Source: a virus
Lineage: Duplodnaviria; Heunggongvirae; Uroviricota; Caudoviricetes
DNA: 14,094 nt
IMG/VR virus record: IMGVR_UViG_2565956714_000002
Coordinates: 1-14,094 of that record
Direction: 5' to 3' (one strand)
Below are positions 10,021 through 10,996 of this stretch, piece after piece. The translations under genes and the position numbers were made by a program. Position 1 is the first letter of the stretch. Each line of letters begins with the position of its first letter. Below the pieces are notes generated by a model. It was not told where the DNA came from, did no database searches, and worked only from the letters and a program-made list of their open reading frames with translations.

Positions 10021-10673
10021 TGAGTAATAAATATTGCCAGACGCTGGTGGAGCTGCGGAACAAACCAGCCCATGAACTGAAGGAAGTGGGCGATCAGTGG
10101 CGCACGCCGGACAACATTTTCTGGGGAATTAACACCCTGTTTGGCCCGTTTGTTCTGGATCTGTTTACTGATGGTGATAACGCCAAATGCGCCGCGTATT
10201 ACACTGCGGAAGACAACGCGCTGGCGCATGACTGGTCAGAACGTCTTGCGGAGCTTAAAGGTGCTGCCTTTGGTAATCCCCCGTACAGCCGCGCCAGTCA
10301 GCATGAGGGGCAATACATCACCGGCATGCGTTACATCATGAAGCATGCCAGTGCCATGCGTGATAAAGGCGGGCGCTATGTTTTCCTGATCAAAGCTGCC
10401 ACCAGCGAAGTGTGGTGGCCGGAAGATGCAGACCATATTGCTTTTATTCGCGGGCGTATTGGTTTTGAACTGCCAGCCTGGTTTATCCCGAAGGACGAGA
10501 AGCAGGTGCCGACAGGCGCTTTCTTCGCTGGTGCTATTGCTGTTTTCGACAAGACCTGGAAGGGACCGGCAATCAGCTACATCGGGCGCGATGAACTTGA
10601 GGCATGTGGTGAGGCCTTTCTGGCGCAGGTTCGCCAGCAGGCGGAAAAACTGGTCAGGGAGATGGCGGCATGA
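10020..10673 (+). CDS. Phage N6-adenine DNA methyltransferase (Dam-like, orphan), 217 aa
   Basis: Start at ATG 10020 overlapping the upstream stop (TAATG). It contains the catalytic NPPY motif (GNPPYS) and an upstream conserved block (FVLDLFTDGDN) in the order typical of the phage Dam family. No restriction partner is evident. Confidence 0.8.
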   Translation: MSNKYCQTLVELRNKPAHELKEVGDQWRTPDNIFWGINTLFGPFVLDLFTDGDNAKCAAYYTAEDNALAHDWSERLAELKGAAFGNPPYSRASQHEGQYITGMRYIMKHASAMRDKGGRYVFLIKAATSEVWWPEDADHIAFIRGRIGFELPAWFIPKDEKQVPTGAFFAGAIAVFDKTWKGPAISYIGRDELEACGEAFLAQVRQQAEKLVREMAA

Positions 10674-10996
10674 CGACGTTAACTCAATGCCAGCAGCAGG
10701 TGCTGGATATGCTGATTTCTTACCAGCAAGAACGTGGCTTTCCGCCAACCAATCAGGAGGTGGCAACCATGCTGGGATACCGTTCGGTGAATGCAGCGGT
10801 GGAGCATCTTCGCGCACTGGAGAAAAAAGGCGTCATCACGATAAAGCGTGGCGTGGCCCGGGGGATAACTCTTCATACCGCGGTGAAGGACGACGACAGC
10901 GAGGCGGTCGGGATTATCCGCGCACTGCTTGCCGGTGAGGAAAACGCCAGGCTGCGTGCAGCCCACTGGTTACATGAGAGGGGCCTGAAAGTATGA
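10670..10996 (+). CDS. LexA N-terminal DNA-binding domain-like protein lacking the peptidase domain, 108 aa
   Basis: Aligns by eye with E. coli LexA residues about 5-70: query LTQCQQQVLDMLISYQQERGFPPTNQEVATMLGYRSVNAAVEHLRALEKKGVITIKRGVARGITL against LexA [65 protein letters not shown]. There is no S24 Ser/Lys domain. The start overlaps the upstream stop (ATGA). Confidence 0.8.
   Translation: MTTLTQCQQQVLDMLISYQQERGFPPTNQEVATMLGYRSVNAAVEHLRALEKKGVITIKRGVARGITLHTAVKDDDSEAVGIIRALLAGEENARLRAAHWLHERGLKV

Follow-up and report, generated by a model that had tools for sequence, protein, structure and literature searches.

Among phage-encoded truncated LexA homologues, one has been characterised: gp6 of the Bacillus thuringiensis tectivirus GIL01, a sequence-specific DNA-binding protein that activates the late promoter P3 (PMC6182141). 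Gp6 is a LexA winged helix without the S24 peptidase domain, is expressed with early genes and is about 44% identical to the LexA domain of its host. Here we describe a gene that resembles it in the first two respects, located at positions 10670-10996 of a 14,094-nucleotide stretch of a Caudoviricetes virus (IMG/VR record IMGVR_UViG_2565956714_000002, positions 1 to 14,094; hereafter the window), whose product has the DNA-binding domain of LexA but not the autopeptidase. Compared by description, gp6 differs from this protein in being essentially a winged helix-turn-helix (wHTH) alone that lacks the two-helix tail, in binding a non-SOS site and in acting as an activator. Its phage is a linear, plasmid-like tectivirus of a Gram-positive host, whereas the present protein belongs to lambdoid, SfV-like phages and is encoded beside a gene for the resolvase RusA.

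The gene is already catalogued. It occurs at no less than 95% nucleotide identity in 50 phage records, including SfII, SfIV, cdtI, mEp460 and Shiga-toxin (Stx) phages of the Stx2a and Stx2c types, under names such as 'LexA DNA binding domain protein', 'repressor, lexA family' and 'LexA-like protein'. It is also present in 2233 of 5426 complete Escherichia coli genomes (41%), at 2855 places, where NCBI calls it 'LexA family transcriptional regulator'. Its orthologue in Shigella phage SfV, orf42, carried the label 'unknown' on deposition and now stands in RefSeq as 'transcriptional repressor'; the same words name PHROG 362, the profile of which matched the protein over its whole length (E value 2.6e-59; residues 1-108 on profile positions 1-106 of 106). 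The proteins gathered under PHROG 362, under the NCBI family or as PF01726-only entries (SfV orf42, SfII, SfIV, cdtI, mEp460, Stx2a, Stx2c) are 95-100% identical to the window protein and form one family with it, with no sequence difference to set it apart; 'transcriptional repressor' is a database name behind which we found no experiment. In a survey of Stx phages the gene appears only as a pham (237) with pfam01726 (PMC8136144), and our full-text literature searches found no experimental study of the family. An earlier note on this DNA, made from the sequence without database searches, had known of no standard functional assignment for this gene class in lambdoid nin regions; this holds for assignment by experiment, but the gene is catalogued and has a precedent in gp6. 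The BFVD database holds many further stand-alone LexA-domain phage proteins of 65-150 amino acids (aa). Features that distinguish the present family are a conserved two-helix tail, retained CTGT-reading residues and a fixed linkage to RusA; new here are the invariance of that linkage and an SOS-box promoter ahead of the module in three distant relatives. The gene and the parts of its product are as follows.

10670..10996, + strand: LexA-N-terminal-domain-like gene, ATG start, 108 codons plus stop, orthologue of SfV orf42.
10670..10879, + strand: winged helix-turn-helix, residues 1-70 (PF01726), with helices at 6-22, 28-35 and 40-52 and strands at 56-58 and 66-68.
10784..10825, + strand: recognition helix SVNAAVEHLRALEK, residues 39-52, with LexA S39, N41, A42 and E45 kept and E44 replaced by V.
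10880..10891, + strand: linker, residues 71-74, with a predicted local distance difference test score (pLDDT) below 50; length and sequence vary across the family.
10892..10993, + strand: conserved two-helix tail, residues 75-108, with helices at 75-88 and 93-102, standing in place of the S24 domain.

The open reading frame (ORF) is exactly the one delimited by the earlier note, which had also proposed the LexA assignment. The Pfam profile PF01726 (LexA_DNA_bind) matched significantly (E 2.6e-19; 69.2 bits, cutoff 23.7), with residues 1-65 aligned to profile positions 1-65 of 65. A BLASTP alignment with E. coli LexA spanned 90 aa at 43% identity (E 2e-21) and was gapless through residues 1-70. 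Within residues 1-65 there were 33 identities in the same register (51%), in keeping with the note's estimate of about half over about 65 residues, and the recognition-helix string that it quoted was identical at 13 of 18 positions. Solved structures matched by sequence were LexA proteins only. We modelled the protein with AlphaFold2 using a 26-sequence family alignment (pLDDT 84), and Foldseek superposed the model on DNA-bound E. coli LexA (3jso_B) with a root-mean-square deviation of 1.0 Å over 68 columns, at 50% identity and probability 1.00. Compared with E. coli LexA's N-terminal domain (residues 1-84; 1lea, 3jso), the phage protein is alike in fold, register, S39/N41/A42/E45 and R64-G65, with similarity reaching up to the cleavage site. 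It differs in the change of E44 to V, in its private helical C-terminal module, and in the absence of the C-terminal dimer, of docking to activated RecA (RecA*) and of autocleavage.

We found no match to Peptidase_S24 (PF00717) in the 108-aa protein, in a search that did detect S24 in the CI repressor of the same prophage. Moreover, the protein is not a LexA repressor proper: the TIGR00498 lexA equivalog profile scored 70.3 bits, under its cutoff of 110.95, and aligned over positions 1-91 of 203 only, and the protein ends at residue 108 without an S24 domain carrying the Ser119/Lys156 dyad. As there is no S24 Ser/Lys domain, RecA-stimulated self-cleavage of the LexA kind is impossible, which is what the earlier note had argued. 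We conclude that this is a confirmed LexA DNA-binding domain without autopeptidase. Lambdoid CI proteins, such as the one encoded here at 6092-6766 on the - strand, are likewise prophage regulators, related to the LexA superfamily and tied to the SOS signal. CI, however, shares the S24 half with LexA and joins it to an unrelated helix-turn-helix, whereas the present protein shares the DNA-binding half and lacks S24. A search of the PADLOC-DB defence systems gave nothing significant, with a marginal match to CARF3 at the wHTH level (E 4.7e-4, 17.9 bits). Across the whole gene, 57 distinct nucleotide alleles encode 14 proteins and the ratio of nonsynonymous to synonymous polymorphism (pN/pS) is 0.05; taken by part, the winged helix gives 0.03 and the tail 0.09. 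The gene is therefore real and under purifying selection in both halves.

The sequence after the winged helix had been described in the earlier note as a short unrelated tail, and here our results differ. The structure prediction that the note had proposed modelled the tail as two helices, residues 75-88 and 93-102, at a pLDDT of about 90. Among 15 close relatives the stretch IIRALLAGEENARLRAxHWLHERGVKV is nearly invariant. An exhaustive profile search recovered full-length relatives at 40-50% identity (P0122-P0126, P0131, P0132, P0137, P0144, P0149 and P0161), which have the same architecture and retain the pattern (V/I)(I/L)RxLL...A..xA..(W/F)L...G; orthologues in this range of identity come from Kosakonia, Enterobacter and Buttiauxella prophages. 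The scan of the genome collection, made with an 8-sequence alignment, also returned genuine lexA genes from bacteria of the PVC group, which accounted for the matches under about 44% identity and were left out. A97 and L101 are invariant in the 26-sequence alignment, down to 40% identity. The tail is thus a conserved two-helix module, and it had no match in Pfam, the Protein Data Bank (PDB) or BFVD; Foldseek searches of PDB and BFVD matched the wHTH only.

LexA dimerises on DNA through its C-terminal domain. That domain is absent here, so the suggestion in the earlier note that the phage protein forms inactive heterodimers with LexA has no structural basis, and we rule it out. The isolated N-terminal fragment of LexA reportedly binds operator weakly and needs removal by ClpXP after cleavage. 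The phage protein does not end in the VAA-type signal by which ClpX removes LexA(1-84). From a model of the monomer, we propose that the tail is a candidate dimerisation or partner-binding module, and that it probably supplies the self-association that LexA obtains from its S24 domain.

LexA contacts DNA mainly through S39, N41, A42 and E45 and reads CTGT directly (review, PMC11442139), and its DNA-contacting residues have been listed as S39, N41, A42, E44 and E45 (PMC3091678); we took the contact residues from these secondary sources. The window protein has S39, N41, A42, V44 and E45. Across the family of 26 sequences, neither S39 nor the wing residues R64, G65 and I66 vary, N41 is kept in at least 90%, and A42 and E45 are shared by most members. 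For the clade of the window protein, a CTGT-type half-site is therefore the parsimonious prediction from sequence, and binding to SOS boxes, which the earlier note had proposed, is plausible because the four main CTGT-reading residues are retained.

The position of the gene bears on when such a protein would be made. Its immediate neighbours are the following.

10020..10673, + strand: phage N-6-adenine methyltransferase of the Dam family (PF05869, E 1.1e-45; TIGR01712, 255 bits against a cutoff of 97).
10993..11382, + strand: RusA-family Holliday-junction resolvase (PF05866, 56 bits), the invariant downstream neighbour.

We placed the start of the Dam-family gene at the ATG at 10020, giving 654 nucleotides (nt) as in RefSeq; the mechanical list of ORFs begins it at a GTG at 9987. 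The ATG of the LexA-like gene overlaps the TGA of the methyltransferase gene in the ATGA at 10670-10673, and its own TGA overlaps the ATG of RusA in the ATGA at 10993-10996. A Shine-Dalgarno sequence, AGGGAG, lies 8 nt 5' of the LexA-like gene. The translational coupling to both neighbours described in the earlier note is thus borne out. In four database proteins (P0023, P0092, P0098 and P0121) the C-terminus of Dam is fused to the LexA-like protein; these are probably the products of single-base indels at the ATGA overlap rather than true domain fusions. A homologue of PerC-family (yfdN-like) transcriptional activators lies two genes 5' of the LexA-like gene, at 9526-10020. The + strand from the immunity region to 13349 yielded no sigma-70-like promoter. 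The simplest reading is therefore that the LexA-like gene belongs to the rightward early transcript, which fits the proposal of the earlier note that it is made with early and recombination functions.

We consider it quite possible, if still short of probable, that the protein is a RecA-insensitive, LexA-type regulator that reads CTGT, is probably dimerised by its tail, is made from the early transcript after CI inactivation and acts at LexA-box-like sites. Such a regulator would combine a LexA-type winged helix carrying the CTGT-reading residues, a flexible linker and a conserved helical hairpin. Having no promoter of its own in this prophage, its gene would be expressed from a rightward transcript running through cro, replication genes, PerC, Dam, the LexA-like gene, RusA, KilA-N, HNH/DUF968 and Q, and the protein would appear only once CI repression is lifted, while host LexA is being destroyed. 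Its most likely activity would be sequence-specific binding to CTGT-type sites, imposing a regulation that RecA* cannot relieve. Candidate sites would be host SOS promoters and the SOS boxes of the phage lineage and of co-resident elements.

The consensus SOS box is TACTGTATATATATACAGTA. On the 20-bp matrix with which we searched for SOS boxes, real boxes score 13.4-26.9 bits. In support of the proposal, strong boxes stand ahead of the LexA-like gene in three distant relatives: ACCTGTACATTCATACAGTA in L087 (4560-4579), TACTGTTTATATATACAGTG in L088 (4561-4580) and AACTGTACATTCATACAGTG in L099 (5467-5486), scoring 20.9-26.2 bits. Each box overlaps a sigma-70-like promoter (TTGCAA, 17 nt, TAATAAT) and lies 440-530 bp 5' of the LexA-like gene, before a small phrog_1813 ORF, and a leader of ~100 nt is conserved after the box. 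The module in these loci is not continued from the replication genes and forms an operon of the phrog_1813 ORF, the LexA-like gene, RusA, DUF968 and Q. Since it starts at an SOS-box promoter, the module is tied to the LexA regulon in this lineage. The late antiterminator Q would in these loci come under direct control of host LexA.

A second placement was seen in SfV itself (L136), where the sole strong SOS box, TACTGTAAAAATAAACAGTG (34170-34189; 22.3 bits), lies between Q/tR' and the lysis genes and overlies codons 3-9 of the DNA methyltransferase gene orf48. The same box was present in 27 of the 59 related loci with enough downstream sequence, and it may mark either a methylase under LexA control or a roadblock to late transcription. 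In L088, a similar box (7739) precedes an N6_N4 methylase. Separately, 18 of 67 related loci carry a box of 25-27 bits inside the coding sequence of a different cI (XRE family); the near-consensus example TACTGTTTTTATATACAGTA, with reverse complement TACTGTATATAAAAACAGTA, scores 26.9 bits (L001 8444-8463; L092 3103-3122) and, by translation, falls in a linker-like stretch.

Several observations weigh against the proposal that the protein acts at SOS boxes. The matrix itself derives from a set of no more than 19 literature sites of E. coli (Lewis 1994; Fernández de Henestrosa 2000). No SOS box above chance was found in the 14-kb window, where the best site scored 9.1 bits and shuffled sequences reached a median maximum of 9.5. 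As only about half of the related loci carry an SOS box, a target in cis is not obligatory, and the Dam/LexA-like/RusA module, with its overlapping genes and no intergenic space, speaks against a simple cis target. In L088, the recognition helix of the protein (P0137) has diverged, and the box there is therefore probably for host LexA rather than for autoregulation. The protein family also shows variation where LexA reads DNA. Position 44 is never acidic in the 26 sequences (V, A, F, T, L or Y), and positions 42 and 45 vary in some members: they are T and I in P0137 (SQNTVFIH) and T and G in P0087 (SVNTIAGH), a Citrobacter protein that is 65% identical, and position 45 is L in P0132 (SSNAVLLH). 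Variation of this kind favours targets that have diversified over one SOS-box target shared by all members.

The operators of the phage itself, which the earlier note had offered as alternative targets, do not fit either. In the divergent cI/cro control region (6770-6850), we found inverted repeats of the TTGTACC-N5-GGTACAA type, for example at 6783-6801 with a second around 6833-6850, which are presumably the CI/Cro operators mentioned in that note. They are not of the CTGT-N8-ACAG type, and the same protein accompanies different immunity regions and so is not matched to the operators of its phage; we rejected them, a further point against a simple target in cis. Of the two kinds of site that the earlier note had named, SOS boxes thus remain plausible and phage operators do not. 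With up to one mismatch, CTGT-N8-ACAG occurs nine times in the window against 5.2 expected. The perfect core CTGTAAGTAACCACAG at 7752-7767 was also rejected as a target, as its score of 8.0 bits is at chance level; it lies inside an Ash-family / phrog_3960 'transcriptional regulator' gene (7649-8485) and is conserved in 22 related loci. As the window has no SOS box above chance and only about half of the loci have one, the obligatory targets, if they are SOS boxes, would lie in the host chromosome or in other elements.

The variation at positions 42 and 45 and the family-wide replacement of E44 would be expected of a different kind of protein, a transcription factor specific to the phage and comparable to gp6 of GIL01, in which the winged helix has been retargeted to a non-SOS phage site and activates or represses a phage promoter, for example to time late or accessory genes. 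The precedent of gp6, which is 44% identical to its host LexA domain and yet binds a distinct site and activates P3, lends this explanation weight, as does the location of the LexA-like gene just upstream of the late regulator Q. We nevertheless think it unlikely, if credible. The window clade retains all four primary CTGT-reading residues, and the overlapping genes of the module leave no intergenic space for a private operator. The protein is at least 97% identical across phages that differ in immunity region, Q type (PF06530 or PF03589) and flanks. No conserved non-SOS palindrome was identified, and a look for a private late-promoter site of the gp6 type gave no candidate in this prophage, whose late region is cut off by a putative IS1 insertion sequence.

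Among close viral loci, which are related to one another and so not independent, RusA lies immediately downstream of the LexA-like gene in 81 of 81; upstream stands Dam in 63 and, where Dam is absent, a PerC-family gene in 18. A more diverse set of 14 loci, drawn from Kosakonia, Enterobacter, Buttiauxella and metagenomes, encodes proteins of 40-52% identity; RusA is again downstream in all 14, giving 95 of 95 loci, directly adjacent in 12 of the diverse set and separated by one small ORF in 2, and the order LexA-like, RusA, (KilA-N or Ant), DUF968/HNH, Q is kept. The start/stop overlap with RusA was checked in the window and in several relatives. Overall, the upstream neighbour varies among Dam, PerC, a replication protein and a Dcm-type methylase. 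The counts in E. coli are nearly reciprocal, with the RusA subfamily in 2299 genomes at 2975 places against 2233 genomes and 2855 places for the LexA-like gene.

Such constancy beside a variable upstream neighbour would suit an accessory of the recombination module, a DNA-binding partner of RusA, or perhaps of the DUF968/HNH nuclease, the tail of which contacts RusA or the domain of which targets or restrains the resolvase. We regard this as improbable. A fixed order is typical of inherited modules of the lambdoid nin region and needs no physical partnership, and a few RusA copies (H65, H82) abut Dam directly. Across the same diverse loci, RusA is 60-81% conserved against 43-52% for the LexA-like protein, giving no sign of tight co-evolution. 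The retained base-reading residues point instead to sequence-specific binding of duplex DNA. RusA acts alone in vitro, and the RusA subfamilies of DLP12 and phage 82 are not known to have a LexA-like neighbour, which also counts against such a partnership.

It is very improbable that the protein serves as a decoy for RecA* and LexA, whether as a trans-cleavable substrate or by competitively inhibiting S24 proteases (LexA, CI, UmuD) or the RecA* groove. This idea draws on the BLASTP and TIGR00498 alignments, which extend through the LexA cleavage-site region and pair RALLA-GE with RVAA-GE, so that A88-G89-E90 of the phage protein falls on A84-G85-E86 of LexA by BLASTP. The match amounts to three residues and a hydrophobic pattern, and the segment is modelled as an α-helix, unlike the strand-loop of LexA. 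G85 of LexA is critical for cleavage, but its counterpart G89 is replaced by N in several close relatives and by other residues in more distant members. Finally, although the protein resembles a lexA truncated just past the cleavage site, a decaying, functionless remnant of a captured lexA is effectively excluded by the pN/pS of 0.05, the full-length orthologues of the same architecture at 40-50% identity and the presence of the gene in 41% of complete E. coli genomes.

Several features of the window place the gene in an SfV-like prophage. Blocks at 1399-5608, 6009-11478 and 11600-13194 are 96-98% identical to SfV, which integrates at thrW, and a 417-aa ORF at the start of the window is presumably proA. 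Two features follow this ORF.

1369-1444: tRNA-Thr(CGT).
1459-2622, - strand (leftward): integrase.

Together, these indicate an SfV-like prophage at thrW next to proA. Its Q antiterminator gene (PF06530; window 13210-14094 region) retains the first 52 aa only and is cut off at about 13368, and the overlapping ORFs at 13397-13672 and 13591-14094 look from their sequence like insA and insB of IS1. This prophage is probably unable to activate its late genes. The DUF968/HNH gene (12213-13207) is split, with the ORF at 12213-13025 covering positions 2-70 of the DUF968 profile and the ORF at 12917-13207 covering positions 79-171; as intact relatives encode one protein of ~329 aa, the window copy is a probable frameshift pseudogene.

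To return to the proposal of a RecA-insensitive regulator reading CTGT, its boldest form is one that we rate as doubtful: that SfV-like and Stx-type lambdoid prophages, found in roughly 40% of E. coli, carry a RecA-proof mimic of LexA, which in the course of induction would re-occupy SOS boxes after LexA cleavage and so shut off the host SOS response (recA, ruvAB, sulA, umuDC) together with LexA-controlled rivals such as colicins and antirepressor-controlled prophages, while the phage would supply a resolvase through the adjacent RusA gene. In the sub-lineage with its own SOS promoter, the same protein would provide an SOS-induced, damage-insensitive negative feedback that also gates Q.

If the protein does bind SOS boxes, phages would hold, in a gene very common among prophages, a switch over the DNA-damage response of the host that is beyond reversal by RecA. 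The hosts and phages concerned are E. coli, the serotype-converting phages of Shigella, and Stx2a, Stx2c and cdt phages. It would then bear on the induction of Shiga-toxin phages, on competition among co-resident prophages and colicin plasmids, on SOS mutagenesis under antibiotics and on the behaviour of SOS reporters in lysogens. If the target is instead phage-specific, the protein would be only the second characterised example of a phage having taken up the DNA-binding domain of LexA, and the first among lambdoid phages of Gram-negative hosts. Its conserved tail would represent a new, S24-free way to assemble LexA-type winged helices.

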